From NCBI GenBank assembly GCA_030602565.1, contig JAUVZL010000005.1:6467-70466 (forward strand): a stretch of 64,000 nucleotides of DNA, written 5' to 3'. Below the pieces are notes generated by a model that was given only the letters and a program-made list of their open reading frames with translations, made no database searches and was not told the DNA's origin. Positions 3,857-58,413 of this stretch are shown in pieces. A program made the position numbers and the translations under genes. This DNA comes from Candidatus Stahliibacteriota bacterium. Lineage in GTDB: Bacteria > Hydrothermota > Tepidihabitantia > SM23-42. Numbering within the stretch: position 1 is the stretch's first letter; each line of letters opens with the position of its first letter.

Positions 3857-5820
3857 TAATGCATTGATAGACGCCCGAAAAACGTGCGTCCGGGCATAGG
3901 ATAGTCCAAATCATTCATCGTATAGCCAAATTGAGTGGCATAACCCTGGTCTAACAAGTTCTTTACGCCGATTGATAGGGTTAGATATTTAAACAATTGT
4001 CTGCTCAAATTTGCATTGAGAACGAAATAAGGATCAAGTGTCTTCATATCCATAGTCACATTAGGATAGTCGTCATCACTATTTGGATAGTAGTTAACCC
4101 GTGCTGTAACATAAGAACCAGTAAGATTTACTCTATATTTGTCAGGCAGATTAAAACTAATCGTTGATGACATGCTATATCTTGGTGTGCAAACAGCATC
4201 TCTTTCTATTTCTTTAAGGACCGTAGACCCGGTGTCGACCTTCCAGTTATCATAAATTACCTCGGTGTTTTTTTGACGGGCATTGAGAAAAGTAGCCTCG
4301 ACAGAAATACCTATCATGTCACTTATTTCTGTTTTTGCCTCAACATCCACACCTTTTATCGAAACATAATTTACATTTTTAGGCTGCCAGTCCGAAGGAT
4401 TTGCAAGTGGATCATCAGACGGTAACCAGAAAATTCTGTCTTTTACATTGCGCATAAATAAAGACAAAGCGATAAACGAACTGTTCATTGGAGAACTTTC
4501 AAGCCTTAATTCATATGCCCAGCCATGCTCTGGTTTAAGATCAAGGTTTCCCGAACCAGGCCAGAACAAATCATTGAATGTCGGCGCCCTGAATGCCTTG
4601 CCCATCGAAATCTTCGCCCAGAGGTTGTCCATAATCGGAGTGACAAGACCGACTGCTGGTGATAGAAAGTAATCGTATCTTGAATTCCAGTCCAACCTCA
4701 TACTCGGCGCAAATATGAAATGCTCGATTTTGTGTTTCAATTCAAACCAGGCACCTATATTATATGAAGAAGCATTCCATACTGTATCACGGTAGCGTTC
4801 AGAGGTTTCAGTTGTTTCAAGTGTATCATAGTGTGCATCAATACCAAAAACCACTTCAGTGCTATTCATGCTGATCTGCGCCATTGTATTAGAACCGAGT
4901 GTGTAGGTAAGATAATCATAATCAGTGTCTATGGTATCCTGATTATACCCGATAAAAGCAGTGTGGAATTGAATTAAGCGACGGTCAGCAAAAAAGGTAT
5001 TGGTCAAACCAAAACCATCTGATATGTCCCATTTGACGCAGACATTACCGAGTAGGCTATTGTCCTTTTCTCGGTCCAAAAGAGAAGCTGAGCTTGAGTC
5101 AGCAAGCATTGGTCCGGGGATTCCGTAGTCTTTGTTATTATAGGTGAACGTTGAAATGATCTTCGCCTTATCTGGTTTATAACTGAACGAACCTGTAAAA
5201 TAATAACCAGTATAATCGCTATTATCCCTAAAACCATCTGAAGCACTATATGTTCCTGCCGCATCAAAAGTCGTCTTGCCAATAGGTAGACCCACCTTCA
5301 CGAACAATTCTTTTGATTGAAAAGGCATCTCCAGACCTGTTGTTGCTGGATAGAATAAGGCTTTGAATTCCGGCTTTTTGTAATCCTTTGTGGTTATGAT
5401 ATTTACTGCACCACCAATACCATTTGCTCCGTATAAGCTCGAAACCGGACCTTTAACGATTTCAATGCGCTCAACCGTATTAATATTTATCGCACTCAAA
5501 TCAGCCATACCTACGGTTATCAAATTCAAAGGGTGACCATTTACAAGCACCAGGGTTCCATTTGCGGGTATCCCACGTATCGATATGCTCGATACTGAAC
5601 CAGGGTTACCATAGTCTTTGATATCTGCACCAACATAAGCCTGCAAGACTTCACCAACACTTATCGCATTAAGCTTATCAAGCTCCTCTTTATCAATGAC
5701 TACCGTTGCCAATGCAATATCCTGTAATGCGGCAGGGTAACGCGTGGCAGTTACCACAATCTCATCTAATTCATAGATGGGTTGGGCAACCAACATAACA
5801 AGAAAAACCAAAGGGATCAT
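3853..5820 (-). CDS. btuB: TonB-dependent receptor, probably vitamin B12 transporter
   Basis: TonB-box region 'LDEIVVTATR', plug 'IERIEIVKGPVSSLYGANGIGG', C-terminal 'PGRTFFGRLSMHY'; upstream cobalamin riboswitch. True start taken as ATG 5820 after GGAGG; the ORF track's extension to 5973 reads through the riboswitch. Confidence 0.88.
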   Translation of the reverse strand: MIPLVFLVMLVAQPIYELDEIVVTATRYPAALQDIALATVVIDKEELDKLNAISVGEVLQAYVGADIKDYGNPGSVSSISIRGIPANGTLVLVNGHPLNLITVGMADLSAININTVERIEIVKGPVSSLYGANGIGGAVNIITTKDYKKPEFKALFYPATTGLEMPFQSKELFVKVGLPIGKTTFDAAGTYSASDGFRDNSDYTGYYFTGSFSYKPDKAKIISTFTYNNKDYGIPGPMLADSSSASLLDREKDNSLLGNVCVKWDISDGFGLTNTFFADRRLIQFHTAFIGYNQDTIDTDYDYLTYTLGSNTMAQISMNSTEVVFGIDAHYDTLETTETSERYRDTVWNASSYNIGAWFELKHKIEHFIFAPSMRLDWNSRYDYFLSPAVGLVTPIMDNLWAKISMGKAFRAPTFNDLFWPGSGNLDLKPEHGWAYELRLESSPMNSSFIALSLFMRNVKDRIFWLPSDDPLANPSDWQPKNVNYVSIKGVDVEAKTEISDMIGISVEATFLNARQKNTEVIYDNWKVDTGSTVLKEIERDAVCTPRYSMSSTISFNLPDKYRVNLTGSYVTARVNYYPNSDDDYPNVTMDMKTLDPYFVLNANLSRQLFKYLTLSIGVKNLLDQGYATQFGYTMNDLDYPMPGRTFFGRLSMHY

Positions 5821-36518: not shown

Positions 36519-37628
36519 CTATTCTGACGAGGAGCCGGACTCGTCCTCATCTTTAATCTCAAATTTAACCCTTTGTCCATCTTTCAGCTTTGAAAGAACA
36601 CGATACGGACCAATGATCACTGTATCACCCTCTTCAATACCTGAAATAATCTCAATTTCTGTGTCGCTCGATGCGCCCACGGTGATTTCAGTGAGTATTG
36701 CCTTGCTGTCCTGGACAACAAAAACAGTTTCTTTGAGCTTATCATCAATCTTGCGTTTGCCTGATGCCTGAATTGGAACAGTCAGAACATCTGATTTCTC
36801 ATCAGTGATAATGTCGGTTTTAACATTCATCCCTGGTCTGAGAAATGGTGAGAATTCACCCAGTTCTATTTCAACCTCGAAATCAGTTGCTTGCTCAGTC
36901 GTCAACTGGCTCGTAATGGGCATCAAACCAACTTTGGTAACAACCCCAGAAAAGGTTGAGTCAGGTAAGGCATCAGCAATTACCTCTGCTGCCTGACCAA
37001 TTTCAACCGTGGGAACATCAGTCTCATCGATTGTCACCACGGCGATCATCTGAGATAGATCTGCAATCGTTATTAGCACTGTGCCCTGATAGTTCATCGT
37101 GCCCATAACCGCAGTCTCACCTTCTTCAACATTGATCTTCATTATTTTCCCGGAAATAGGGGCGTATATCCTGGTTTTCTTATAAGCATCATAAGCTTGC
37201 TCGAACTGCGCTTTTGCCATTTCATAACTTAGTGCTATTTTTTCATAACTTTCTTTTGATATTAATTCCTTCTCAAAGAGCTTCTTACCTCGCTCATAGT
37301 TTTGCTCAGCCTGCTTTAACTGCGCTTGAGCGAGTTTCTTACTCGCCCGAGCATTAACGTCATTCAAGGTGATCAATAAATTACCCTTTTGTACATGATC
37401 TCCTTCCTGGAAATATATCTTCTGAATTCGACCGATTGTTTCAGCCGAGATATCTACCTGGGATTTTGCCCGTAACTCGCCTGATGCCGTAACTTCGGAA
37501 ATAATATCACCTTTGGCAGCAAGTTCAACCTCAATATCTTTTCCACCCTCGCGCTGGGTCAGGTTCAATATTATGACTATGGATATTATGATAATAGCTC
37601 CAATTGCTATTAAAATCTTCTTTTTCAT
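36519..37628 (-). CDS. Efflux membrane fusion protein (MacA-like)
   Basis: Lipoyl-like 'V..GD.V.KG..L', 'IYAPISG', 'LRPGMNV'. Confidence 0.92.
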   Translation of the reverse strand: MKKKILIAIGAIIIISIVIILNLTQREGGKDIEVELAAKGDIISEVTASGELRAKSQVDISAETIGRIQKIYFQEGDHVQKGNLLITLNDVNARASKKLAQAQLKQAEQNYERGKKLFEKELISKESYEKIALSYEMAKAQFEQAYDAYKKTRIYAPISGKIMKINVEEGETAVMGTMNYQGTVLITIADLSQMIAVVTIDETDVPTVEIGQAAEVIADALPDSTFSGVVTKVGLMPITSQLTTEQATDFEVEIELGEFSPFLRPGMNVKTDIITDEKSDVLTVPIQASGKRKIDDKLKETVFVVQDSKAILTEITVGASSDTEIEIISGIEEGDTVIIGPYRVLSKLKDGQRVKFEIKDEDESGSSSE

Positions 37629-37738
37629 CCCGCTCCTTTCATCCGAGACTTCATATTAAAACACAAAGCTGGATTTTGGACCACATAACTGCCAAATATT
37701 CTAATTGTTATCATCTTCTGCCAAGGGGCTGGATTCAT
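37625..37738 (-). mobile_element. 114-nt ATGAA-flanked cassette, copy 3
   Basis: MNPAPWQKMITIRIFGSYVVQNPALCFNMKSRMKGAG*; same ends and length as copies 1 and 2. Confidence 0.72.
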
Positions 37739-41537: not shown

Positions 41538-42680
41538 TCATTGTTTAGCTTCCCAGGTTTCTGCGGATTTGATCCGGTTACCTGGTGAGGGATGGGAGTA
41601 TTTATACCATTCTATAAATGGATTGGGATAGGCAATTGAAAGTTGTTTATTGCAAAACTTTGCCATCAGGCCAATAAAACTTTCTGGATCTTTGGTTAAA
41701 TTAAGCGCGCCTTTATCTGCTCTTCGTTCATAATATCTTGAGATCGCAGAACCAAGAGGTTTCAGAACAAAAGCGAGGACTGCAAAGATTGCTCCAAACA
41801 ATGGAAATGCAGCAATATCAGAGACTTTGTGAAAACCAACCCATTGGTAAAAATATGGATGTATTCGATAGAACACATAAAACATCACGATCGTAGTGCA
41901 GGACTGCCACAGAATTAACCACCTTACATGATGTTCTCGATAATGCGTAATTTCATGTGCAAGTACGGAGAGAATTTCGCCTTCAGTATAATCAGCAATC
42001 AAAGTATCGCCGATAAGAATCCTCTTCGTATTGCCCAAGCCAACAACCGCGGCGTTTGCTTTAGTCGATTTACTGGATAAGTTAATACTGAAAATACCTC
42101 GCACATTAATCTTTGTCTGCTCACAAATATCTTCAATTTTACTCCTTAAATCTTCGTTTTCAATTGGCGATGTTTTGTAAAAAAGAGGCAGGATCAATAC
42201 TGGAAAAAGGTTGGCGAGAATGACACTGAATATGATCATTATTATGGAAAGCCAGAGCCACCAGAGTGTTGGCGATATGCTTGTTACCAGATAGATAATC
42301 TCAAACACAATTGTGCCAAGTATAAAACTCACAAAAAAAGATTTTACCCAGTCTTTTAACCACGCCTTGAAATCCTGTGTTGAAAAGCCATATTTATGCT
42401 CAATCACAAAACCATCAAGATACGCAAGCGGCATCGTGATCAAAGTGTAGACTATATAAAGTACAGTAAAGTATATTAATATTATTAGAAATCGTGCATC
42501 AGTAATAGCATTTATGAACACAACGAAATTTTTCGAAATATCAAACCACAATAGAGCTGCAATAAATATTCCTGAAATAACATAGGTAGCAACGCTGGTT
42601 TTTAAATTGTCTTTATGATATTTTTTCGCCTGCTTCTGTTTTTCTCTATCAATTAATGGATGCATTGATTTCTCCTTCAT
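41538..42680 (-). CDS. M48 (Ste24-like) zinc metallopeptidase
   Basis: 'KANAAVVGLGNTKRI', HEITH zinc motif, 'ERRADKGA', 'SHPSPGNRI'. Confidence 0.93.
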   Translation of the reverse strand: MKEKSMHPLIDREKQKQAKKYHKDNLKTSVATYVISGIFIAALLWFDISKNFVVFINAITDARFLIILIYFTVLYIVYTLITMPLAYLDGFVIEHKYGFSTQDFKAWLKDWVKSFFVSFILGTIVFEIIYLVTSISPTLWWLWLSIIMIIFSVILANLFPVLILPLFYKTSPIENEDLRSKIEDICEQTKINVRGIFSINLSSKSTKANAAVVGLGNTKRILIGDTLIADYTEGEILSVLAHEITHYREHHVRWLILWQSCTTIVMFYVFYRIHPYFYQWVGFHKVSDIAAFPLFGAIFAVLAFVLKPLGSAISRYYERRADKGALNLTKDPESFIGLMAKFCNKQLSIAYPNPFIEWYKYSHPSPGNRIKSAETWEAKQ

Positions 42681-43006
42681 ATTTTCTCCTGTCCCAATCG
42701 CTCAATGAATTGAGCAACTACAAATTTCTTACCGTTGTCTAACCGATTGGGCAATAAATTTATATTCTATTCTAATTTCAACGTAAGTCAATACGATTTA
42801 CAATAAGAAGATCTTCTTAAAAAATTACACCTTGACAAATCGTGGAGTTACGGTACAATTATATACTCAAACCTTGAAGCGGTATTTTAAGTTTCAAGTA
42901 TATATTTTATAGACGGAAGAAAATATGGTTTTAGCTATTCGCACTATTGGAATTTCAAGGTGCAAGGACTGAGGTATCAGAGTATTAGGAAAAAACAAGA
43001 GGCGGT

Positions 43007-43816
43007 ATGTGCAAATTTAGATGTTTGGTTTGCTTAATGCTTTTATGTGGACTCGGTTTTGGTAGCCAACCTGATGAATGTTTGTTCAAGAAAAAGCAAC
43101 TTGCAATTAGCCTTGATTGGCATAAAGAGATTTCAAAACCTAACTCAATTGAATTTAGCAAATACGATTTCTTCAACAACCGAGGAATCTCTGATTTTAC
43201 ACTCAATGATACAACCCACATGCAGGGTTTCCAAACAGATGCAAGTAGGGTGACTTTTGGTAAGATTGCCTTGGAGTCACTTGGGGCAGTAACTTGTGGA
43301 TATGTTATTACCAGTACTATTTGGTATTCCTCTTTTCCACGGTCAGTAGAGTCATCATTTTACCCTATCAACTTGTTGGGTTTGTTGGTAGTCAATCCGG
43401 CTGGTTGTTTGGATTTTCCTTACGCTGTTGGATTCTCTATCGGTCCTGCAATAGGGGTAACATTAATAGGAAATAGATTGATGAAACCGCGTGGCTCTTT
43501 TTTAAAATCTCTAATTGGTGCAGGTTGTGGAGCTGCGATTGGGATGTTAATTAACACACCTACATTTCTTGTCATGTACGGTGGATGGGAAGCCGGCGAT
43601 GAGGATCCTTGGAAAAGTTGGGGTTGGCACCATTATGGACAAATCGCTGCTTTAATACTGCCAGTTGCTGGCGCAGTTGTCGGATACAACCATAACATAT
43701 CACAGAAGAGTGTGGTCCCCATGATGAATTCGCCAGAGGAAAACAAATTCCTTGATGGTGGTAGTCAACGACACTGTCCATCTATTAGACTTCAGTTAAT
43801 CACAATGAGATTTTAG
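43007..43816 (+). CDS. Variable Gly-rich membrane protein, paralog A1
   Basis: Signal-like N-terminus '...GFGSQPDECLFKK'; shares conserved blocks with 44390 and 46373. Confidence 0.8.
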   Translation: MCKFRCLVCLMLLCGLGFGSQPDECLFKKKQLAISLDWHKEISKPNSIEFSKYDFFNNRGISDFTLNDTTHMQGFQTDASRVTFGKIALESLGAVTCGYVITSTIWYSSFPRSVESSFYPINLLGLLVVNPAGCLDFPYAVGFSIGPAIGVTLIGNRLMKPRGSFLKSLIGAGCGAAIGMLINTPTFLVMYGGWEAGDEDPWKSWGWHHYGQIAALILPVAGAVVGYNHNISQKSVVPMMNSPEENKFLDGGSQRHCPSIRLQLITMRF

Positions 43817-43830
43817 AAAGGATGGGGAGA

Positions 43831-44316
43831 ATGAAGGTTACTATAAACATAGTAATTTTACTAACTGCTCTACTTAGCAACGGTTTTGCAGACAATAGTA
43901 ATATACCCGATAGTATATTGTATGCAAATGCGGAAGGGTTAGATCTAATGAGTGATGCTCCATGGGTGATAAATAAAGATGATTACATACCTTTTTCCTT
44001 TATTATTAAAGATTGCAATCAGTACCTTGGTTTAGAATTTCATTGCCTAGCAATTTATGACATTTCAGATGGTATAGAATACTATGGTGGTACCGAAATC
44101 GTGCCATCACTGAATTACACAATGCGTGTCACGTCAGATTCTGTTATTCATCAAATTGAATATCCTCCATTAACTCCAAATCCATTAGATCGAACAAAGG
44201 TGTCTAATCAGATATTCTATTACGATTATATCGATATGGGATATTCTTTACCTCCGAACTTCAATTATAATTGTTCGATTGTCTGGTTTGATGGAAATTG
44301 GATTAGTCAGTTTTAG
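43831..44316 (+). pseudogene. Truncated N-terminal copy (stub B1) of the giant protein
   Basis: Near-identical to the 47130-47570 translation up to 'DMGYSLPP.F.YN', then diverges and stops. Confidence 0.8.
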
Positions 44317-44365
44317 GTCTTGACAAATGTCAGATATTTATTATAATTCAAAAGACTTAAGTGTA
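44233..44365 (+). repeat. ~135-bp junction/promoter repeat, copy 1
   Basis: Repeated at 46211-46347; contains TTGACA-16-TATAAT. Confidence 0.88.
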
Positions 44366-44389
44366 TAGATCTACACCAAAGGAGGCGGG

Positions 44390-45109
44390 ATGAATAAGTT
44401 AAAATTCTTGGCTTGTTTGATGCTTATATTTGGACTCGGCTTTGGCAGCCAGCCTGATGAATGTTTGTTCAAAAAACAACATCTTGTAGTCAGCCTCGAT
44501 TGGCGTTATGAATTATTGAAACCCACCTTAGCAGCATCTAACAAGTACTATTTCTTCAACAGAGGAATTTCTGATTTTACACTCAATGATACAACCCACA
44601 TGCAGGGTCTCCAAACAGATGCAAGTAAGGTGACTTTTGGTAAGATCGCGTTAGAATCAATTGGGGCATTGGGTGGTGGTTTTCTTCTGGCTTATCCTAT
44701 AACAAAAATGAGCAAGTACGATGTCCAAGTGGGATATCCAATTGGTTTTTCGATAGGTCCGGCGATCGGGGCAACATTAGTCGGCAACGCATTAATGGAA
44801 CCTAATGGTTCTTTCTTAAAAAGTATTATTGGTTCAGCTTTAGGGACTGGTTTAGGTTATCTAGTGTTTCTATACTTCTATATAAAGGGTTTTCCTGATC
44901 CATCAACAGATTATGGAGATGAGTATAATTGGTCTATAGTTGTTGCGGCAGGATTACCCGTGATTGGAGCAACAGCAGGATATAATATCGGAATACCTGA
45001 AATGAATCAGAATTCTGGTTATTTTGAAAGAAATTATAGATTCTTTAATGAAACATTACAATTAAATCAGACGAGGCTCAAGTTGTCGTTGATTTCTATA
45101 GAATTTTAA
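44390..45109 (+). CDS. Variable Gly-rich membrane protein, paralog A2
   Basis: Same conserved blocks (VTFGKIALES, GFSIGPAIG, EPNGSFLKS); different loops and C-terminus. Confidence 0.8.
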   Translation: MNKLKFLACLMLIFGLGFGSQPDECLFKKQHLVVSLDWRYELLKPTLAASNKYYFFNRGISDFTLNDTTHMQGLQTDASKVTFGKIALESIGALGGGFLLAYPITKMSKYDVQVGYPIGFSIGPAIGATLVGNALMEPNGSFLKSIIGSALGTGLGYLVFLYFYIKGFPDPSTDYGDEYNWSIVVAAGLPVIGATAGYNIGIPEMNQNSGYFERNYRFFNETLQLNQTRLKLSLISIEF

Positions 45110-45123
45110 GAAAAGGGAGGTGA

Positions 45124-45414
45124 ATGATGTCTTGGCTTTTGACAATTTTAGCTTTGATTAGTACACCATCATCGGATAGTATTAAACCTTTCTATTATGA
45201 TGATCCTTGGCGTGAAGTAGTCTTGGAGGCTCCATGGGTAATAGCGATCGACGATACAATCAATTTTCTATTCTATATGCACGATTGCGATGAAGATCCC
45301 ATCAATGAATTACATGCTATTGCAATTTATAATCTCACAGATGAAGAACACCATTATTACTGGGCAGGCAGATCTCAATGTGCACCAGCACCTAACATTG
45401 TAGATGCACAATAA
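45124..45414 (+). pseudogene. Divergent truncated N-terminal stub (B2) related to the giant protein
   Basis: 'EAPWVIAIDDTINFLFYMHDC...ELHAIAIYNLTD' aligns with 'DAPWVINKDDYIPFSFIIKDC...EFHCLAIYDISD'. Confidence 0.65.
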
Positions 45415-45658
45415 ATGAGCCACCCATAACACCTAATCCAACAATCCCGTAAATGTTTTGTTTTTCGAAGCAATCTTGCAGTGGATAAAGTATTAATTTC
45501 CTGTGGGAGTGGGCTTCTGTCCGCGATTATCAGGCTCGATTTTAATCTTCGGGGAAGATTATTTTTGATTGAAATCGGGCTATTGACTTTCAATATGTAT
45601 CAATTATAATAGAATAGAAATCAATAAAAGAAAAAAATGAAACAAAGGAGGTAAAATA

Positions 45659-45847
45659 ATGGCAAAAATAAAGCAAACGGTAATTCAAATCATAAAATCT
45701 CTTCCCGAAGACGTTACCATTGATGACATTATGGCTGAACTGTATTTCAAGCTTCAGGTTGATGCTGGATTAAAAGAACTGGATGAAGGAAAAGGGATTC
45801 CTCACGAACAAATAGAGAAAAGAATGTCAAAATGGCTCACAAAATAA
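45659..45847 (+). CDS. Putative antitoxin
   Basis: 'IIKSLPEDVTIDDIMAELYFKLQVDAGLKELDEGKGIPHE'; overlaps the toxin start. Confidence 0.8.
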   Translation: MAKIKQTVIQIIKSLPEDVTIDDIMAELYFKLQVDAGLKELDEGKGIPHEQIEKRMSKWLTK

Positions 45848-46122
45848 TATGGTCACCGCGTGCCGCATCCAATCTTGAAAATATTTGTGAATATATTGCC
45901 CGAGATTCAAAATATTATGCCACACTTTTCGCCAAGCGAATAATCGCGAATATTGAGAATATACCCAAATTTCCGAAATCAGGTCGAATCGTGCCTGAAT
46001 ATAACAGCAAGAATTTGCGAGAAAAAATCTATAAAAACTATAGGATTATTTATCGAGTTAAGCGTAACTTTATTGAAATTGTTGCAATATGCCACAGCAC
46101 GAAACCATTAGGTAATATGTAG
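45832..46122 (+). CDS. RelE/ParE-family toxin
   Basis: 'KIIWSPRAASNLENICEYIARDS...FPKSGRIVPE...LRE....YRIIYRV'. Confidence 0.9.
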   Translation: MAHKIIWSPRAASNLENICEYIARDSKYYATLFAKRIIANIENIPKFPKSGRIVPEYNSKNLREKIYKNYRIIYRVKRNFIEIVAICHSTKPLGNM

Positions 46123-46174
46123 AATATTTTTGGAAAGATATAACATAATAGGTGGATGAAAAGGCACAATGCGC

Positions 46175-46347
46175 CGGGGTGATGAGATTGTGCCCGATGT
46201 AGACTATCCTGATATGGGTTATTCTTCACGTCCGAACTTCAACTATAATTGTTCGATTGTCTGGTTTGATGGAAATGCATGAGGTCAGTCAGTTTTGGGT
46301 CTTGACAAATGTCAGATATTCATTATAATTCAAAAGACTTAAGTGTA
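46175..46347 (+). repeat. Internally deleted giant-gene fragment plus junction/promoter repeat, copy 2
   Basis: GGTGATGAGATTGTGCCCGATGTAGACTAT matches ~47385-47414, then jumps to the GATATGGG block. Confidence 0.8.
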
Positions 46348-46372
46348 CAAAATCAACACTAAAGGAGACGGT

Positions 46373-47116
46373 ATGTGCAAATTTAGATGTTTGGCTTGCT
46401 TAATACCTTTATTCGAGCTAGGTTTTGGTAGCCAACCTGATGAATGTTTGTTCAAGAAGCAGCAGCTTGTAGTCAGCCTTGATTGGCATAAAGAGATTTT
46501 AAGACCCAACTCAATTGAATTTAATAGATATTATCTCTTCAATAGAGGAATTTCTGATTTTACACTCAATGATACAATCCAAATGCAAAAACCACCATCT
46601 GATGTAAGTAAGGTGACTTTTGGTAAGATTGCCTTGGAGTCACTTGGTAGTGCGGCGGGAGGTGTTATCGCTTTCGGGTTTACACGTTTGCTACTTCATG
46701 ATGCAGATTTTTGGGAAGGCGCGACAATGTGCGTTAGTGTTCCTGTCGGTCTTGCAGGTGGGGCAACGATTACGGGTAATCTCCTAATGGAGCCAAATGG
46801 TTCTTTCGCGAAATCCCTTGGTGGCGTTGCCATAGGTTCTTTGATAGGATTACCAATTGCTATAATCGCAGGTTTGACCAGCTTAAGAGGCACGTGGGAC
46901 CATATGTATACAGAAGCAGCACCTATAACCTATATATTGTTTATTACTGCAGGTTTGTGCCCAATTACTGGCGCAGTTATCGGCTACAACCATAACATAT
47001 CAAAGAAGAGCGTGGTCCCCATGATGAATTCGCCAGAGGAAAACAAATTCCTTGATGGCAGTAGTCAACGACACTACCCATCTATTAAATTGCAACTAAT
47101 TACATTAAGATTTTAA
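46373..47116 (+). CDS. Variable Gly-rich membrane protein, paralog A3
   Basis: Start MCKFRC after AAGGAG; N- and C-termini close to A1, middle divergent. Confidence 0.8.
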   Translation: MCKFRCLACLIPLFELGFGSQPDECLFKKQQLVVSLDWHKEILRPNSIEFNRYYLFNRGISDFTLNDTIQMQKPPSDVSKVTFGKIALESLGSAAGGVIAFGFTRLLLHDADFWEGATMCVSVPVGLAGGATITGNLLMEPNGSFAKSLGGVAIGSLIGLPIAIIAGLTSLRGTWDHMYTEAAPITYILFITAGLCPITGAVIGYNHNISKKSVVPMMNSPEENKFLDGSSQRHYPSIKLQLITLRF

Positions 47117-47129
47117 AAAGGGAGATAAG

Positions 47130-50100
47130 ATGAAGGGTACTTTAAACATAGTAATTTTACTAACTGCTTTACTTAGCAACGGTTTTGCAAGTAATAGCAA
47201 TCTGCAAGATAGTATATTGTATGCAAATGCTGCCGGTCTTGATTTAATGAGTGATGCTCCATGGGTGATAAATTAAAGATGATTACATACCTTTTTCCTT
47301 TATTATTAAAGATTGCAATCAGTACCTTGGTTTAGAATTTTACTGCCTGGCAATCTATGATATTTCAGATGGTATAAAATACTATGGTGATGAGATTGTG
47401 CCCGATGTAGACTATACTTTTCGTACAACCCAGGACTCCATAATTTTCGAGATTGCGTACCCACCATTAACTCCAAATCCATTAGATCGAACAAAGGTGC
47501 CTAATCAGATATTCTATTACGATTATATCGATATGGGATATTCTTTACCTCCGAGTTTCGATTATAATTGGTGGAAAAAGGAAGTGAATAAATTTAAATG
47601 CATCGGCACGAATTGGAATCAATCACTGAATGGTCAATTGACCACCCCTTCAGCATTAGGGTACAATCCTGGCGATACAATAACATTTAGAACAATCATT
47701 GTATGCAGGAAGATATTTTATGATCCCAACATGATGCAATGGTCTCTACTCTTGCATTTTCGTGAGCGTGATTTAAGAATTGTGGTGGTAGCGGATCAGT
47801 GTCCTATGCCGAAGTTATCAAACTGGTATTTAGCAGATTGTCACACTCATAGCTGGAATACAGATGACGAATTTGAATATGGTGGGGTCACACCATTTAT
47901 GGCAAAAGCTGCAAAGAAGATTGGGTTAGATTGTGTAATATTTACTGATCATTCAAACGATTGTGGGTGGGTTCAAGACCATAATGATGGTTGGGGATCA
48001 GGAACAAACTGGAATCACTGCGGTTGGGAAATAGACCAGTACACTGACGTGTTGTTGATACGAGGAGAAGAAATAAGCGCACATAGAAATGGTGTTGGTT
48101 GGGGATGGGTAACGTACCCGCCGTTCTATGTAAAACCCTCGAAAATCAAGCGTCATGAAAGACATTTCCTCGGTTTTGGTCTGAATTCTTTTATCAAAGG
48201 ATGGCATCCGTTAGTTGTTGGATATCCCGGGGCATTGTATGATGTCAATGGTATTCTCAGTGGCTACCCACCACCACAATGGACTTGGAATTATGGAACA
48301 CCGTCAAATCATATCAAAGCACAGGGTGGTTTTGGTTATTATGCACATCCAGGTGACTATTTTGAAGAAGAAGATGATTCTACGACACTTATTGAAGCAC
48401 TTGAACACAACGTATGCAAAGGATGGCAAATCTTCAACTGTCGCAAAACTCATAGAGCCGGCGAGGATAGCGGTGGAGATGAACATTTTCATCCTTGGGG
48501 AGAATTCCCATATGGAAAGACCTGGGAGACATCACGTCCTGACTGGCTTGAGATATATGTTCCGATAATTCGTATTTGGGATAGGTATATGAGTCAACAC
48601 CTTAATAGTTTCCGAAAAAAAGCACTCATTCTTGGTGGCTCTGATGCACATGGCGATTTTAATTATTCGATTGGTAAACAACTTGTCTTAGGATGGCAGT
48701 GGCCGCCAGTTGACTTTGACTGGATTGCTGATGCAACTGCCTTAGGTGCTTGGCGTACTGCGGTGTATTGCCCAGGAGGATTGACAAGGGATAATATTTT
48801 AAATGGTCTGAAAAATGGAAAGACGGTGATTACGGATGGTCCTGTGATGATTTTTGGATTGGATATGAATAATGACGGTGATATTTATGATGCCGTGGAT
48901 ATGATGATTGGTGACGGCGATAATAATGAGGACGGGGTCATTGATCATAAGGCGAGGTTATTTGGTGCATGTAAGGATTCAGGCGCAATTACTGTTAACC
49001 CAACCTCATATATCAGCTTCATGTTTGAATGGCAGTCAAACAGCCTTTTTGGACCAGTAGATTCAATAGTCCTCTATCAAGGAACATCAACAACTGGAGA
49101 TCATCCGGATCGAGTATGTAAATTAATCCCATCCAATGGTCAGCAAGGTACAATGAACTATGAATATTACTGGGTACACGAGGCAGAGGATTCAGTGAAC
49201 AGTTATTTTCGCGCTATAGCATATTCTCAAAGCGGTTCGGGAGTAGGTCAGCAATACCGTTGTTTTACAAATCCCATCTGGATTAGGGGATATTTTGAAA
49301 CACCGCCAAACAATCTACATATTACGTGGTATGATGAAAGTCAAGTCAGGATTGCCTGGGAATGGCATTATGCTTGTACGCCTGATTGTTGGAAGATTTT
49401 ACGCAGAGAATATAGCTCGAGCTGGCCATATGAATGGGATACTGTTGCCACTGTGTACTGGGGTTATCGTGAATATGAGGACAATACAGTAGAACGTGGT
49501 AAAAAATATGTTTATCGAGTCGTGGCGACAAAAGGCACAACTCGGTCAAAACACTCCCATAGCGACACAGTTCGGGTGCCTTTGCTCAATCGACCCTGGT
49601 ACCAGCTCCGTGTTCATTCACCAGCTTCAGACAGGATTGTCGTAGAGTTTCGTGACCTCTCAATTTTTGAGACTCGATTTGATGTTGAACGAAAGTGTCC
49701 AGCGATCGGTGAACCCTGGCATGTTGAAGCGACGCTTGATGCTGAGCCATCATCGGGGACTTGGGTTACCTATGAAGATTATAATGTCAAACCAGAAAGC
49801 ACCTATTTTTATCGGGTAATGGCATATACGAGTATAGAACCTGCGGGTTACTCGGCTTACACCTGGAAATATGGTGCAACGGTCTGGCCACATTTAAAGA
49901 CAGGCAATAATGATTCAGCCACAGCATATCAACCCAAGGTTATCTACACTCCCGAAGATAATTTGTATTATATGACATATGCAGGAGAGAACTTGCTATT
50001 CGCAAGCAAATCAAATAATGGTATAGATTGGGAAGGAATGAATGCGATATGCTATAGTGGCTACCCGTGGATTGTAAATTGGGATGCTGGTTTTTCTCAA

Positions 50101-53100
50101 GTTGACATAAACGAAAATGGTGTCCCGGTGGTTGTATTCTCTATAAAAGGGAACTCTGGTTCTAAAGACAAAAAGCATTGGTGGAGTGGCATAAATATGG
50201 GCTATTTTGTTGCTGATAGTAATCAATGGCTCGATTCAATAACTCTCTACGAGTATATAACTTACCAGGAAGAGCCTTTGCTCTTTTTCCCATTTGCCTT
50301 TAAAGTAAATGGTGACACAGTGCATTTAGTTTATTTTGTTGATAATATACTCAAGTATCGCTGGTATAATTTTGCAACCCCTGAGATTGGCAATCCCATA
50401 GACATTGGTACTGTTGCCACTGGTTTATTTGATATGAATGATTGTTATCCAGTTATTGACAGGGACCAAGATGGCAATTTATATGTTGCATGGTTCTTTG
50501 GAGAGTATGGTACCAGCTCAGGACTTCTCATGCATTATCGAGAACGGATTAATGGTGTGTGGCTAACAACTGAGGAATTTGAAATACCGTGGCGAGACAC
50601 GTGGCCTGGCATTGATCAGGGTGTTCGTTATCTGTCAATCAGGCGTTCAAATAATAAAACATACGTACTTTGTACTATTGCAGGAAGCATTCAGTATCCA
50701 GGTATTACCTGGTTAGAAGAACATAGTCTTGCACTCTCAGCATATGAAGGAAGTAACTGGCAGACCGAATGGGTGTTTCCTGATACTACAGTAAGTAATG
50801 CTCAGTTGCTCACAGAGAATTTGATCCTCTATGCTTTAGAAGTCAATAATAATTTCGATTTATATTATCAGGAGAAGATAGGCACTGGTTGGTCAGACCC
50901 AATTTGCATAAAAAACACCGCTGAGAAATCCAAGTTTCCACAGGGAGTTTTTGATGGTGAGAATATTGCCTTAATCTGGACTGAAGGTGATGAAGCCCCT
51001 TATGTTATAGATACCGCAAAGGTTCGTGTGATTCCGCATGTCGAGATTGTGTTTCCTACAGTTGAAAATATCCTTGGTTCAAGGCTGCGGGCTGGGTTAC
51101 CATTGGAAATAAACTGGACATCTTCAGACAATGTTGGTGTGGATCTGCACAGAGTATACTACAGTCTTGACTACGGCGCAACATACACTCAGATTGGTGG
51201 TGACTTATCAGGTACCACTTATGAACTGAGCTGGATCGTGCTGGATACGATTGTGTCGGGTTTGATGATCAAAGTTGAAGCATATGATGGTGCAGGTATG
51301 CTCAGTGCTCAAGAAGAGGGTTCTTTCATAACAACGAAAGAATTTGTCTTTAATCCCAATTTTGAAGACGTATCTGAGGATAAACCTTATCTTTGGACCT
51401 CGTATGGCACTGGCGATGTCTTTGAGGCAGACTGGGAATATGTACAGAATGGGCAATTTTCTACGCATATTAGTCGTGGCTCGGCAGATGGATATTTCGG
51501 TTTCTATCAAAAACAAATCCCAGTTGAACCGAATACAAAATACTGGTTACAGGGTTATATCAAAACCCAATCAACAGCAGGTACTGCAAATTTAGCATTT
51601 GGTGTGTGGCACTCGCATCCAGACACAAATCATCACCGCGATTTTGGTGATATTGCTGGCAATACAGATTGGACTTATGTATGTGATAGTCTTACAACAA
51701 GACCATATGAGGATACGATTCAAGTAATGATGTTTGGCAATCCCGCTTTTATTGGCGATGCACGGTTTGACAATTTGACATTGTTGATAGACACAGTAGC
51801 ACCACAAATCATAGTATCTTATCCTAATGGAGGAGAGAGTCTATTGGTTGAAGAGAAGATTCAAATCTACTGGTACGCGACAGATAACGTTAAAATGGGC
51901 AAAATTGACAGTATCTTATATTCTATTGATGCGGGTCAGAACTGGAATCTAATTGCAGTTGATTTACCAGAGACAATAAATTCCTATGAGTGGACTGTAC
52001 CAGCATTTTCAGATCAATACAAGATAAGGGTTGTGGCATCAGATGCCAGTGGCAATCGCTCAAGGGATGAATCGGATGACTGCTTTGCCACAACATATTT
52101 TAACTCCTCAGGATTTGAATATACTGACCCATATTGTTTTGAAAATGAGTTGATTGGTGTACAAGGAGTGGTTGATGCAGGTGCAATAAGAGTGGCTGGC
52201 TCCACAAATGGTGTTGAACCACACGCAGGTCAATTCATGTATAAGATCTACGGTACGGACAATGAAGCAACGCAGAACAGCTACGTAATTTATAAGGTGT
52301 TTCCATATGACTTTCCAATACATGATTCTACATATTTTTCGTTCTGGCTCTGCATAGAAGAAGCACCTACTGATTCTGGTCATATCTGTATGGACGCATA
52401 TACTAAAAGCGGTAATATTCTGAGAGCCTGGTCAAGATTCGGCAGGATTTTAGATCAGACCGGGCAGAGAATTCATCCGGCTTTGCATTCTGCACCAAAA
52501 CACCAGTGGTGTCAGTATGTTTTCTCTTTTGCACCGGCAGTGGCTGAGACGATTGACTATATTGAATTGATTTATGATGACTATGACCATTCAGAAACAG
52601 GATATTTTGAAGGCTATATTGATGATATCGAGGTTTCGGATAGCTTTCCGATCCAAGACACCTGGCATACAGAGAAGTTCCCAGTTGGAAGCCCACCGCT
52701 TGATCCTACTTATTGGGATCCGAATTTTGAGATGAATTTTGTTGCGGAGTTTTCTAACGGGGTAGAATTAATTATTGACCCGCAGGGTGATGGAGGTGAG
52801 GGCGCACACTGGGTTGCCCCAACTCCAGGTTTGCGAAATGATATCACCGATATACCGGTCGATCAAAATACAATGTTCTTCTGGCAGCAATATGACAAAG
52901 CTCATAGTCTAATTCTTTCGCTGCTGATCCATGACAGTTTTGATGAAGATCATTGGCTCACCTATGCTAAAAATGCCGACAATCACTGGTGGAAAGAGGG
53001 TTGGGTAAATATGGGGAACCCGAGTCAGAATTATGAGGTGTGGGAGTGGTTTTACAGGAATATCAGGGATGATTATATTGAAGAATATGGTGAAGGTGTG

Positions 53101-56100
53101 CCACCAAATGGCGTTGAGCCTCTTTTCATCAAAGAAATGAGATTAGAGCATTTCGCGAAATCAGAATGGCTTGGTGACCATGGTGGGACAATAAAAAACT
53201 TATTTATCGGTGAGGATACGATTGCTCCGATTGTTGAAGTAATACAGCCTAATGGCGGTGAGCGATGTGAGATCCGTAGTATTTATCCGATTATCTGGGA
53301 GGCAAGAGACAATTTACAAATCGGTCTTCAAAGTATTTACTACTCAACTGATGCAGGCGAATCCTGGCAAAATGTCATAGAGAACCAGCAATTTGAACCG
53401 ACGGCTTCGTACCAGTATGACTGGCAGATTCCTGACCATGCTTCTGACAATTGTCTGATAAAGGTGCTCTCCAATGATATAGCCAATAATACTGGAATTG
53501 ATATAAGCAATAACCCATTCTCAATCTGTTGGCTCACGAGCATAGACTCAATTGCAACAACTGGCAATGGTGAGAGGGTTGTTTATGACCAGGATACATT
53601 ACATATAACCTTCACTTCAGCCGATAGCATCTTCTATTCATATTCTTCGGATCAAGGCGAAACCTGGTGCCTAAAAGAATTCATTGATTTTGGTGAATAC
53701 CCCACAATAGCAATTGACCATAATCACGCACTGCATCTTATCTATAAGAAGAATAATACCCTTCGTCATAAGGAAATCAATGGTTCACCTGGTGGAGTGG
53801 CAATCTACACGACGAATCATGATCTACAATCACATTCATTTACCATTGTTAGTGACAAATGCTTCCTCGCATTTGAAGAGCGTGAATACCAGGGCATGGA
53901 TCCGATAAGTCATCTGATATATGGCTACCTTGACTTAGGTGTACCACCGAATGGTAATCTCATTACCCGGGAAATAATGGCCGACAATACTGAATTCTTA
54001 AAGAATCCCCATATTGCGATTTTCCAATCTGATGAGCCACATATTGCATATGAACGTGCAGATTCAATATATTATGTCTATCAATTACCTGATGGCGAGT
54101 TTTCTGCACCGTCTGAAATAGGCCTAGGTAAATCACCTTATATTTCGATTGATTACGAGATTATTGATGTGGTCTGGGAGAGTCAGAATGATATTTATCA
54201 TCGGAGGAAGTGGTATTATAGTAGTTTTGGCGAGGCTGAAAATATTTCACAGACACCAATGACAAAATCCAAAGAACCAGTTATCATTTCACCGTATCTC
54301 GTGATATGGCTCGAAGGACCCGGTGATATGCCAAATTCAAGATATGATGTAGTATACTCAATATGGCAGAGAGATAATTGGTCAGAACAAATAATAATTG
54401 CCACAAATACACAATTAGTTCACGGATTAAAAACATATTTTGACGGCGACAAAATCTACTGCACATACACCTATGGAAATTCAGGTCCTTATGCAATAGA
54501 AAACGCAAAAATGTCGGTCGGCATGATCTTACCACATAGAACATCGAAGACAAAATTAGCCACCGCCAGTAATAATGCAAAGAGAATAGTGTTTGATAAT
54601 GCAGAAATGCTCCATGTTTTTTATCGTTCTGGAGATTATCTTTTTTATACATATGACAATACAGACAGGATATTCGCTGAGGGTCGCTATCCAGCAGTAT
54701 TCTATGAACAGGATTCAATTCATACAATCTGGATTTCTGGATCGCTTTATCCACCGCATAATCTATGGTATCGCAAGGGAATTGCTGAAACCTGGGATGA
54801 GCCTATGGTTATCTGGTCAAGTCCTGGTTCACCTGACTACCAAATCTTACCACCTTCATTTACCGCGTCTAATGACAGTGGATATATTGTTATAGAAGAA
54901 GAACACACTATTGGCTCAACCCTATACTGGAAACTATACTTCATCACATTTCCACTTACTGATCCTTGTAACACTATCATGATGATAATCGATTCAGCAC
55001 AGATATCGCCACCTCCATCACCGCCGCCGCAAGAAGAACCGATTTCACCATCGATTACTCTGGATGATGATAATAATCCTCATATTGTCTGGTCAGACAA
55101 AAATGGACATATATGGTATACTTACAGACAATATGGAACCTTTGTACAGAAACAGGATTTAACCGAAGGGTATATCGGCGCAATTAATGCAAAGCGACCA
55201 TGTATTGAAAAGTACACGAACCGACTTAGCGTGGTATTTGAATTATTCAATGACATATACTATACATATCGTATACTTACGCCTGCACCGAGCGGATTTG
55301 ATTGGTCAGAGTTGAAGAACCTTTCTAACTCGGCGGACAGTTCATGTACACCGATTATTTTGTGCGGGTCCCAGGTATTTTATAGTGAAAAAGCGAATGA
55401 TAACTGGGAGATATTCAGTACGAATTTTGATGGATTTGAATGGAGCCCGCCTGAAAATATCAGCAATACTGCACCTGCGAGTTCGCATTATCCACAGGGC
55501 ACAGCACAGGTTAGCTTAGGTGATAAAGGAGGATCAAAAAAGATTGAGACTCTGATATATCTGGTGTGGACAGACGGCTATGAAGATGAATATCATCTTG
55601 AATATCTACAACTCATAGGTTCAGTGCCAAATTGGCAGAGCGGTGAGCTTACTGAAAACACAACCTGGGATGGTAATGTCTTTGTGACTGGTGATGTTAC
55701 AGTTAAAGACAATGTGAATCTCACAATAATGCCAGGCACCAATATATACTTCAGTTATCCAGACGATCAGTACAGTGGCAAGGACTATAACCGGTGTGAA
55801 TTGATCGTAAGTGGGGACTTAAATGCCGCGGGTACTCCACAGGATTCAATACAATTCATTGCGTATCCTGGTAATGAACCGCCATTTGGGAAACACTGGT
55901 ATGGTCTTGGAATATTTGATTATGGAAATGGAGCAATTAGTTATGGCCGAATAAGAAACAGTAATTACGCGGTCTTTCTAAATTATAATGCAACAGGTAG
56001 CATTGAAAACACAAGAATCGATAGTAATTCTTATGGCATCACAATCTCGAATAACAGCACTGCGGCAATCAGGAATAGTGAGATCATGTTCAACTCAAGT

Positions 56101-58413
56101 ATGGGGATCTATTGTTCTGGCTCGCGGGCAATTATTGACAGTAATTACATCTATAAAAACAGTCTGGCACAAGATACATTGAGGTGGACATCAGGAAGTC
56201 AGGATATCAAGGGGAAGGATACGCGGATATCGGATTATCAGGACAACAGGATAAAGGGGCAATGTAGTGGTTTGATTTATCAAACAGATGTCATTCTGAA
56301 CCATGCCCTGAACTTGTTTCATGGGTTGGTTCAGAATGACAAAAGAGGCGGCTATCCGGATACCTTACCATTTTCCTGTACTGGAATAGTTGTGATGAAT
56401 TCAGAGGTTGACATAGTAAACAACACAATAGTAGATAATTTCAAAGGGCTTTACACATCTGGATGGATTGTCGGTACAGTCAAAAACAATCTTTTTGATT
56501 CCAATAGATTCCACGGCTTTGACTTTGTGGGTGATTCACTCGATATTGAGATTTGTGGCAATACGTTCACCAATAATGGCTGGTATCCTTGGCCTATTGT
56601 TGAGTTAGCCGGCATTTATCAAGGTGTTTTTGAGTATCATTCAGGAACACGGATTGAGATAATAAATAACAAGTTTTACGATAATAATGTTGGTATTTAC
56701 TTTGCCAAATACTACCAGGCAGTATCGAGCCCAACCCAGGTATATGTGACTAACAATGAAATGCACAATAACAAACTGGGTATTGGTACACGCAATGACA
56801 GAGATGCGAATCTTGAGGTAATACTAATTTATAATACCATCGTCGATAATCAGGATTATCAGGTTTTTCATGAAACTTCTCTTAGTCAGGTACTCAACCT
56901 TGGCGATTTGGATAATGAATCAGCACTCGACGACGGTAACAATAAAATCTACAGCACTTCTGGTCTTTCCCAGTATGCTTTGGTAAACAAGACACCGTAT
57001 GAATTAAAGGCGCAGGGCAATTACTGGGCATCGCGGGATTCCGCTACAATAGATACGCTTTTTATCTATGATGATGACGAAGATCCTAATAGTGGATTGG
57101 TGAATTCCAACTACTTTGCAACCTGGGGTGAGATCGAGCCAGGTACTGTATGGCAAGGGATTGTGAATATTGGCGGCGATGTAGTGATTCCAGAGAATGT
57201 GACACTGACTATTGAGCCAGAAACTGAAATACGATTTGCCGCCAGAATTGATGGTGCGCAGGAAGGCATAGATACAACACGAACAGAAATGATTGTTTTT
57301 GGAGAAATCGAGGTTAGCAAAAAAGATGTGATAGGAGGAAATCAGGGTATTACGACGATACGAAATGATAAGTTAGAACGACAAAGTACGAAAACAAACA
57401 GGCACCTCGAAAATACAAAATTATCCCTAGATGATGATGGGAACCCGCTACCCAGAGAGGACGGCAAAATCTATTTCACTTCAGATGCATTTGAACCAGA
57501 ACCTGGTGATTGGTATGGAATACGATTTGTAAATGGTTTAAAACGTGAGATTGATGGTTGGATCGTTAAATACGCGATATCCGGTCTCGACTTACCAACC
57601 GCAGCAGGACTGGAATTGAAGAACTCAAACATTGTTAAGGCATTGGGATATGGCCTCCTGTATAGTGGCGATGAATTAGAAATGCGTTCTTGCTCACTCG
57701 TTTATTGCGGAATAGGTGCGAAAGTTACTGCTGATACTTTTGAAATTGATAGTGCTATTATTATAAGTAACAATGTAGGGATCCGAGTTGAGAACGGATA
57801 TGGCGAAATCAAGAATAGCTATTTGTTTGATAATGATACAGCCATCGTTATGGGTTTTGTAAACGGAGAGATGAAAGAAAATGTTATAAGAGAAAACAGA
57901 ATAGGTCTTTATATGGAAGAAGACTGTGGAGATTTGCGCATTGGAGCGTGCAATGAATTTAACCATAACTTTGTTTATCATATCTACAACGATACTCCTG
58001 ACAGCGTTGATGCAACAGAAAACTACTGGTATCCAGCAGAACCAGAATCAATTGCTCTTTATATCTATGACTATTATGACGATCCTAATTTAGGGGTTGT
58101 TTGGTTTGAGCCTATAGCCGGTGGGTTTGCAGGTGGTCCTCAAGGGTATAGTGATGCTCAATTAGAGAAAATAAAGGTCAGTTTCGGCTCAAATCCGACG
58201 ACACATTTTACAATCAACTACAGTCTGCCAAGTACCCAAAATGTCGATATCTCTGTTTATGATGTAACTGGCAGATTGGTTTCAAGAGAGGACGAGAAAA
58301 AAGAAAAAGGAATCTATAATTTGGCAATTAATAATCTTCCCAGTGGTGTTTACTTTGTGAAATTCAAAGCATCAGAATTTGCAACTGAAAGAAAAATAGT
58401 CCTTCTCCGATAA
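47130..58413 (+). CDS. Giant secreted multidomain protein (~3,760 aa if repaired): PHP/CehA-like metallohydrolase, FN3/Ig-like, CBM-like, propeller-like, beta-helix repeats, T9SS/FlgD-like tail; +1 frameshift at ~47273
   Basis: Signal peptide ORF at 47130 stops at TAA 47274; the main ORF carries DCHTHS, FTDH, GEEIS, AHP, GSDAH; 'NPNFE' CBM-like; 'P.GGE' Ig-like; N/I-rich PbH1 repeats; tail 'VYDVTGRLV...SGVYFVK'. Confidence 0.8.

Follow-up and report, generated by a model that had tools for sequence, protein, structure and literature searches.

Introduction

Neisseria pilE/pilS is a system of silent-cassette antigenic variation, and in Flavobacterium the very large type IX secretion system (T9SS) surface protein SprB is encoded beside a small SprF/PorP-like envelope protein thought to be specific for it. 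For Rhs genes a C-terminal displacement model has been described (Jackson et al. 2009, as cited in PMC5361080; Poole et al. 2011, PMC3150448), and effector-immunity modules of the Vibrio cholerae type VI secretion system (T6SS) are displaced sequentially by homology-facilitated illegitimate recombination (Kirchberger et al. 2017, PMC5361080). Here we describe a locus in a 64,000-nucleotide (nt) stretch of a Candidatus Stahliibacteriota genome (contig JAUVZL010000005.1; the whole stretch is called the window below), in which genes for a membrane protein family, A, alternate with truncated 5' ends, or stubs, of genes for a giant surface protein, B, and lead up to an 11.3 kb B gene. We read the array as N-terminal displacement scars at a recombination hot spot, not as a programmed switch, at the head end of a conserved WOR-3 operon, and give this reading a probability of roughly 0.6.

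As in the orphan arrays of Rhs and contact-dependent inhibition (CDI) loci, a giant exoprotein gene here has one constant and one replaceable end, replaced ends and small partner genes accumulate beside it, and the repeats are reshuffled by homologous recombination. The geometry differs, however. CDI, Rhs and MafB loci combine a conserved N-terminus with a variable C-terminal toxin and place the immunity gene directly downstream, whereas here the N-terminal half varies, the C-terminal 4.7 kb is 97% conserved and the partner gene, A, lies upstream of B. The leftovers also lie upstream, where they keep promoter, ribosome-binding site (RBS) and start codon; they are heads of 96-164 codons rather than full toxin domains, no recognised toxin or immunity family is involved, and the export signal is a C-terminal one of T9SS type. 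Because this export and anchoring signal is C-terminal, the constant end would be 3' and the variable, free end 5'.

In the V. cholerae T6SS modules, one homologous anchor and one illegitimate join leave the previous partner gene and part of the previous effector behind, which is the mechanism proposed here, and there too most strain differences are clean homologous replacements, scars being rarer. The anchor in the present case would instead be the conserved 3' half of B downstream and the scar a 5' stub upstream, and the partners form one homologous family with variable cores rather than unrelated immunity families. The SprB arrangement likewise sets the gene for a giant T9SS cargo beside one for a small envelope protein, but A has no detectable PorP/SprF similarity, sits 5' of the cargo gene and varies with the cargo's N-terminus and not with its C-terminal domain (CTD), which is type-A rather than type-B. 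As at pilE/pilS, the expressed surface-protein gene has incomplete copies nearby, with which it exchanges sequence by gene conversion; unlike silent cassettes, these copies carry promoters and start codons, specify the constant end with the signal peptide, number only two or three and differ from B mostly synonymously. In the literature we searched, no paper linked WOR-3 with type IX secretion, and 'N-terminal displacement' was not used with the present meaning. The array shows a new form of a known process, the leaving of displacement scars at polymorphic exoprotein loci, and not a new mechanism, and the locus offers a clear natural case of head-end replacement in a giant surface protein, with the scars upstream, as expected with a C-terminal export signal.

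Results and Discussion

Organisation of the array

The locus lies between an M48 peptidase gene in divergent orientation (41538-42680) and position 58413, where the giant gene ends. Calls of open reading frames (ORFs) and the sequence itself place on its + strand, in order, A1, the B1 stub, A2, the B2 stub, a toxin-antitoxin (TA) pair, a B fragment, A3 and the giant B gene (Table 1). A first-pass annotation of the same DNA had claimed that each A gene is followed within 13-14 nt by a B-family start, and this is borne out by gaps of 14, 14 and 13 nt between A stop and B start (A1-B1, A2-B2 and A3-B). The TA pair (45659-46122) and the deleted B fragment (46178-46290) lie in the order it had given, and promoter-like sites were recovered where it had placed them, scoring 11/12 at 42832 and 12/12 at 44320 and 46302 against the sigma70-type consensus; a further site, at 45583, scores 11/12. 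The region of the first of these promoters matches its counterparts in L001 and L005, loci of the same species, at 92% identity (L and P numbers are our handles for related loci and sequences).

The units of the array are built from long repeats. The 5' ends of the A genes are 81-87% identical to one another across ~290 nt, the 3' end of A1 together with B1 matches the 3' end of A3 together with B at 85% identity over 614 nt, and the two junction-plus-promoter segments, 44305-44365 and 46287-46347, have 97% identity across their 61 nt. These repeats are far beyond chance. All are direct, in a single orientation, and share one novel junction, present at 44273/44274 and again at 46251/46252, the configuration of a tandem duplication or displacement scar.

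Table 1. Features of the A-B array, in window coordinates.
Feature	Position	Strand	Description
P1	42832-42859	+	promoter-like TTGACA-16-TACAAT, 5' of A1
A1	43007-43816	+	A-family membrane protein, 269 amino acids (aa), unique core; A profile (HMM) E 2e-109; signal peptide and four hydrophobic segments
B1 stub	43831 (or 43822)-44316	+	ORF of 161-164 codons; ~148 type-1 B codons, then filler-encoded tail CSIVWFDGNWISQF*; own RBS
Junction filler and P2	44274-44381	+	filler (TTCGATTGTCTGGTTTGATGGAAAT...); P2 TTGACA-16-TATAAT at 44320-44347
A2	44390-45109	+	A-family paralog, 239 aa, type-2 tail
B2 stub	45124-45414	+	first 96 codons of a type-2 B gene
ParDE-type inserted segment	45434-46162	+	antitoxin-like ORF 45659-45847; ParE 45832-46122; promoter-like site 45583
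Headless B fragment	46178-46290	+	35-codon in-frame deletion; shared junction
P3	46302-46329	+	TTGACA-16-TATAAT, 12/12; segment 97% identical to P2 segment
A3	46373-47116	+	A-family paralog, 247 aa from ATG 46373; GTG 46343 is an alternative start
B start	47130-47276	+	signal peptide and 24 residues; TAA reached through the extra T at 47273/47274
Giant B remainder	47275-58413	+	3,712 codons, +1 frame; PHP/CehA-like ~48307-49284; T9SS type-A sorting domain ~58192-58401
B conserved 3' part	52744-57489	+	97% identity with strain L001, whose 5' half is unrelated

Support from the source run and from independent samples

The window was compared with the Logan contigs of run X1, its probable source run (89% of sampled words). 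Contigs without mismatches had depths of 28.4 over the M48 gene, 24.1 over the A1 core, 33.2 over the A1 3' end and B1, 29.1 over B1/P2/A2, 24.7 over A2/B2/TA, 22.1 over TA/B fragment, 17.9 over the A3 core and 26.7 over B, so that B1/P2/A2, A2/B2/TA and TA/B fragment are each spanned by a junction contig with zero mismatches. Such similar depths indicate one genome with all the pieces, not mixed strains with one unit each. The flanks of the window are ~97.5% identical to contigs from other samples (L001-3, L005-6), and all matches are marine or subsurface sediment metagenomes and WOR-3 metagenome-assembled genomes (MAGs). The array is real, and its stubs are inherited structures that recur in independent samples, not products of misassembly.

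An assembly chimera, in which strain variants of one A-B unit had been threaded serially through shared repeats, is accordingly a very improbable account. Related strains are present in the sample, and stretches of 47 nt and 65 nt that are identical between the two paths link A1/B1 with A3/B around an interval without X1 contig (47042-47310). Against this, the X1 depths of 18-33 match those of the single-copy flanks (28.4 and 26.7) and not fractions of them, the junction contigs are free of mismatches, and stub-junction-promoter structures occur in independent JGI, ENA and NCBI assemblies; misassembly, named at the outset as the finding that would overturn the array, is not upheld.

One X1 contig (depth 23.6) joins 42774 to 42693 through 38 extra nt, giving an 82-nt direct repeat with spacer like that at L001 9567-9768. 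The window has a single copy of this repeat (42693-42774), either through collapse during assembly or through variation among strains.

Exchange of A and the B head between strains

Comparison of the locus across strains, which the first-pass annotation had proposed, reveals swaps of head and partner both between L007 and L012 and between the window and L001. L007 and L012 have flanks that are 98-100% identical around a block of 54-61% identity comprising the third A gene and the first ~500 B codons. The window and L001 are 97.5% identical in their flanks and 97% in the 3' part of B from 52744, with an unrelated 5' half, which in L001 consists of a 569-aa gene and a GHL15 head. In comparison with L020, B is 90-99% identical except in a patch of 62-80% identity in the PHP region (47891-48790), and the A cores are unrelated. 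As these alignments show, at the level of sequence, A (or the A core) and the 5' part of B have been replaced by recombination in the population, and the locus reveals the parts that strains with 98-100% identity elsewhere have exchanged.

The A genes are themselves mosaic. Their cores are synonymously saturated (synonymous divergence, dS, above 1.5), with dS of 0.07-1.2 at their ends. A3 and the first A of L001 have nearly the same core (dS 0.01) between a 5' end at dS 0.66 and a 3' end at dS 0.25; the 3' end of A1 is nearest to that of the L001 A gene (dS 0.07); and the 3' half of A2 with B2 has 65-68% nt identity to the third A and B start of L009, L007 and L016. This pattern is the one expected if homologous recombination has moved old alleles between conserved flanks.

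The earlier proposal that A and the B N-terminus are exchanged by recombination thus stands for near-identical strains (L007/L012), but not in the form of a within-cell cassette system. Programmed rearrangement is characterised by a linked site-specific recombinase and inverted or specific sites; a Pfam scan of the ten neighbouring ORFs (~6 kb) found no recombinase, integrase or reverse transcriptase, the array ORFs matched only ParE, inverted repeats at the array are only weak and short, and the contig data contain no within-sample recombinant joints. The genes downstream of B are housekeeping-like.

Stubs with one shared junction

B1 and the start of B share 85% nt identity. The stub stops at the same point as the headless fragment, after ...NFNYN, and both continue into a common filler of ~33 nt and a common promoter. 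This junction, NFNYN followed by TTCGATTGTCTGG and the promoter, is found in the window (twice) and in L005/6, L011, L013, P0112 and P0116, on at least six independent contigs. In L011 it terminates a full-length stub; in L005/6, L013 and P0116 the stub has a 35-codon in-frame deletion, as in the window fragment; and in P0112 a frameshift causes the filler to be read in another frame. One junction common to all type-1 stubs indicates that it arose once and was then inherited, copied and moved. L020 and L004 carry the same promoter and A without stub or filler, an arrangement that looks like the simple state of the locus.

B2 had been taken for a divergent stub of the same B family. It aligns instead with the N-termini of the 2742-aa (L009) and 1066-aa (L007) giants and represents a second B type, not a diverged B1. 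Truncations other than the type-1 junction are independent, B2 ending at 45414 beside the ParDE segment and the type-2 stub of L016 ending elsewhere. A record of successive replacements, the second option of the first-pass annotation, does not describe such an array, in which the two type-1 stubs share one junction (probably one illegitimate event with later copying) and B2 was probably cut by the arrival of ParDE. The filler-plus-promoter was also considered as a diverged continuation of the B coding sequence and rejected, as the alignment was not convincing. No displaced 3' remainder of B1 was found downstream of B within the window, and the same-sample metatranscriptome (X19) yielded nothing on the locus.

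The stubs do not group together in a clade. Identity of the L005 stub is 91-93% with the full-length B of the window and only 77-84% with other stubs, B1 is 74-76% identical to the L011 and L013 stubs, and affinities shift along the sequence. That the stubs are not each other's nearest relatives indicates that they exchange sequence with full-length B alleles. A by-product of the repeats is an in-frame B-head::A hybrid (P0025) in L018/19, present in a broken version in L021/22. For annotation, short signal-peptide ORFs between A genes should be taken as displaced gene heads and not as new small proteins.

Stub-plus-promoter units also stand ahead of a lipase-like gene in L011 and L005/6 (L011 1452-2608, L005 16010-16199, L006 6445-7137), 5' of a lipase/esterase-like N-domain (DCPIIFIHGHKS) that in L011 is fused to a probable beta-barrel C-terminal part. 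The lipase-like join sits a few codons into a former A gene (ATGTGTAAGTAC...).

A proposed route to the array

The displacement reading starts from a locus with one to three paralogous A genes first and then a giant T9SS-exported B. Most exchanges would be clean homologous replacements by ordinary recombination, anchored in conserved sequence at both ends of the A genes, in the initial ~450 nt of B and in its 3' half. At least once, an incoming promoter-A-B unit anchored downstream would have joined illegitimately inside the resident B after codon ~150, in a homology-facilitated illegitimate event that shifted the resident A and the head of the resident B to an upstream position, the head as a stub. 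The junction with its filler and perfect sigma70-type promoter would later have spread, a second copy probably arising in this genome by unequal crossing-over, and the stub junction unit would go on exchanging with full-length B alleles, so that stubs stay open and look constrained. B2 would be the head of a different B type, severed when the ParDE segment landed. The resulting direct repeats make further deletions, duplications and hybrid genes likely.

Several points weigh against this route. We infer its illegitimate step from the junction alone, with its 33-nt filler, and the long-range order of the three units is that of a short-read assembly. Both the A3/B junction and the extra T fall in the interval that lacks a Logan contig in X1; on either side of this interval lie the 47-nt and 65-nt stretches identical to the A1/B1 copy, and the gap is probably a bubble popped against the B1 path in the Logan contig step. 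Frames are open in four of the five junction-sharing stubs, and the pairwise ratio of nonsynonymous to synonymous divergence (dN/dS) is 0.13-0.34 at dS 0.34-1.04, values with which the stubs could be functional rather than scars. Exchange with full-length alleles can account for open frames and low dN/dS without any stub function, so stub mosaicism may be an alternative cause of the constraint, yet it leaves room for function.

Function would take one of two forms, the stubs being either small secreted N-domain proteins or a 5' sequence reservoir for gene conversion of the B head. In addition to their constraint, the stubs have their own RBS and signal peptide 13-14 nt past A, they exchange sequence with full-length genes, and the same ~50-aa N-module heads the A paralogs P0022, P0031-33 and P0025, which suggests a functional unit. 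The junction, however, cuts inside the N-domain, which in full-length proteins runs to about residue 215, and a low-confidence model would pair early strands of that domain with strands missing from the stub. Frame and stop of the tail after the junction vary among B1, L011, P0112 and L005, one variant lacks 35 codons and one copy is headless; short proteins of this kind number eight among 5.8 billion, and mostly synonymous differences from B add little protein variation. Working stubs in either form are therefore distinctly unlikely, and we prefer displacement scars.

A conserved gene pair

A profile of the B N-terminus identified seven metagenome loci, six of them with an A-family ORF directly upstream; in the exception, L013, a gene for a PQQ-propeller cargo lies between A and the stub. 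When loci reached through A homologs are included, A stands directly before the B start in 12 of 13 distinct related loci. Three A genes precede B in L009/10 (B of 2742 aa), in L012 (type-1 head) and in L007 (third A frameshifted; B of 1066 aa, type-2 head). A promoter, an A gene and an intact B of 3767 aa make up L020, and distant A genes precede B in L014/15/17. Stubs take the place of B in L016 (decayed A, then a type-2 stub) and L011 (A, then a type-1 stub), and in L018/19 and L021/22 an A gene is followed by the B-head::A hybrid. This gene order supports A and B as a conserved and, as the first-pass annotation had it, undescribed gene pair, a membrane family followed by a giant T9SS cargo in a phylum without cultured members. 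The expectation that A always precedes a giant B holds in the direction from B to A but not in the reverse, as A is followed by an acetyltransferase cluster in L004, by a PQQ propeller with CTD in L005 and by another A and then a 569-aa repeat protein in L001.

Positions 1-12046 of L007 consist of two 100% identical tandem copies, with a period of 5871 bp, of an [A-A-A-B 1066 aa] unit, of which only the first ~230 nt differ; possible explanations are a very recent duplication, a small circular element and a loop made by the assembler. The short sequence ACAAATCATTTTTTGTCATTCTGAGTCCGCC flanks the L016 (1800-2000) and L007 (1-40) loci, preceded in L016 by two copies of a palindromic GTCAAGCAAG(C/A)TTGAC motif, and is possibly a short dispersed repeat found where A-B loci begin or end.

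The giant protein B

B had been described as the full giant gene, but as assembled it is not an intact ORF, an extra T at 47273/47274 ending the signal-peptide ORF after 48 codons. B1, the L005 and L006 stubs and two run-X2 contigs all lack this T, as does the intact L020 ortholog (3767 aa, 91.5% nt identity), which lies directly 3' of an A gene. The Sec signal peptide encoded at 47130 is cut off from the body of B here and joined to it in L020. At the other end, residues 3599-3668 match the C-terminal sorting domain (TIGR04183 / PF18962) with 42.2 bits against cut-offs of 23 (NCBIfam) and 27 (Pfam). From these signals we predict that B reaches the surface through Sec and T9SS as a type-A cargo whose head, at the N-terminus, is free and distal. 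A 31% identical relative of the B sorting domain is encoded at 542-937 of the window (end of ORF 20-940), so that the window encodes at least one further T9SS-type cargo.

The first ~215 residues form a beta-rich N-domain ahead of the PHP motif. The head matches CehA/McbA (PHP) metallohydrolases with 53 bits, below the cut-off of 80, and the protein further contains Big_7, CBM_4_9, BNR and NosD/beta-helix modules. The AlphaFold2 (AF2) model of the head was poor (pLDDT 50), no sequence relative was found in the PDB, a search with the PHP head matched only the window protein and its L020 ortholog, and a profile search of genome contigs with the B N-terminus gave no match.

The A family and its possible role

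An exhaustive profile search of 1.84 billion representatives returned 84 A-like proteins at E up to 1e-3, 25 of them at E up to 1e-10. The few matches with names are from WOR-3 or unclassified 'bacterium' MAGs, and the family is so far confined to WOR-3-type MAGs and metagenomes. None of 25 members scanned matched a Pfam family at E up to 1 beyond noise, PorP/SprF included, and A3 gave no match to these or any other family in NCBIfam; distant relatives are also without a Pfam family. All members share an N-terminal signal-like segment, an N-domain of ~60 aa, a conserved helix (VTFGKIALESxG) and four Gly-rich hydrophobic segments of 20-30 uncharged residues each. Most end in a tail ...KLQLITxRF, and the distant members (L014/15/17) terminate directly after the fourth segment. 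The AF2 model has four helices but is poor (pLDDT 48). We read A as a probable multi-pass membrane protein. An outer-membrane beta-barrel, considered because of the C-terminal Phe, was rejected, given segments of 20-30 uncharged residues and distant members that lack the tail. In the A paralogs P0022, P0031-33 and P0025 the usual A N-domain is replaced by a B-type N-module (...DS..PLYAN..GLDLMSD.PWVINKD..IPFFF), which indicates that the A and B families share or exchange a ~50-aa module just past the signal peptide.

A membrane partner that changes together with the head of a giant exoprotein invites comparison with polymorphic effectors. Immunity proteins to pore-forming colicins are multi-pass membrane proteins too, as A is predicted to be. 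B could then be the mirror image of such an effector, C-terminally anchored with an exchangeable and possibly antagonistic head, and the upstream A its cognate protective or other partner, old A genes being kept as an orphan array and the stubs being by-products. Consistent with this, A and the B head are swapped as one unit between L007 and L012, A genes stand in arrays of two or three upstream of B, ancient diverged A core alleles lie between conserved ends, as under balancing selection on specificity, and the geometry mirrors that of Rhs/CDI orphan arrays and V. cholerae immunity arrays (PMC3150448, PMC5361080). Yet there is no recognised toxin domain, the head having only the sub-threshold CehA/McbA match, and the heads of sister strains resemble glycan or polymer enzymes (GHL15, PQQ propellers). 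In addition, nearly the same N-domain (88-96% nt identity) goes with A cores of saturated divergence in the window and L020, the A3 core allele occurs in L001 without an adjacent B-type gene, and A heads operons without B (L004). An effector of this kind is unlikely, though less so than working stubs. Equally tentative is the broader proposition that C-terminally signalled exoproteins evolve as mirrored polymorphic toxins, with head and upstream membrane partner (protective or docking) forming one cassette and leftovers upstream, and with A as the first such T9SS partner, its core alleles under balancing selection. If A were a specificity or protective partner, T9SS cargo would follow, in mirror image, the rules learned from orphan arrays of CDI, Rhs and T6SS loci.

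The ParDE segment and a neighbouring cassette

The toxin gene of the TA pair matches Pfam PF05016 (ParE_toxin; E 4e-17) and is overlapped by 16 nt by the preceding 62-aa ORF, itself without a family match in Pfam or NCBIfam. A ParE-fold toxin after a small overlapping ORF is the arrangement of a ParDE type II system, to which the pair can be assigned on sequence. The segment 45434-46162 is 99.9% identical in run X4, where the left flank is different, and the module seems to be independently mobile. In X1, several loose ends lie at 45563-45589 and suggest additional ParDE contexts.

Between its TolC-like and MFP genes, L005 carries four tandem copies (4835-5318) of a 114-nt start-codon cassette present once in the window (37625-37738), with cassette ORFs of 37, 36, 37 and 51 codons; four copies as against one indicate that copy number varies between strains.

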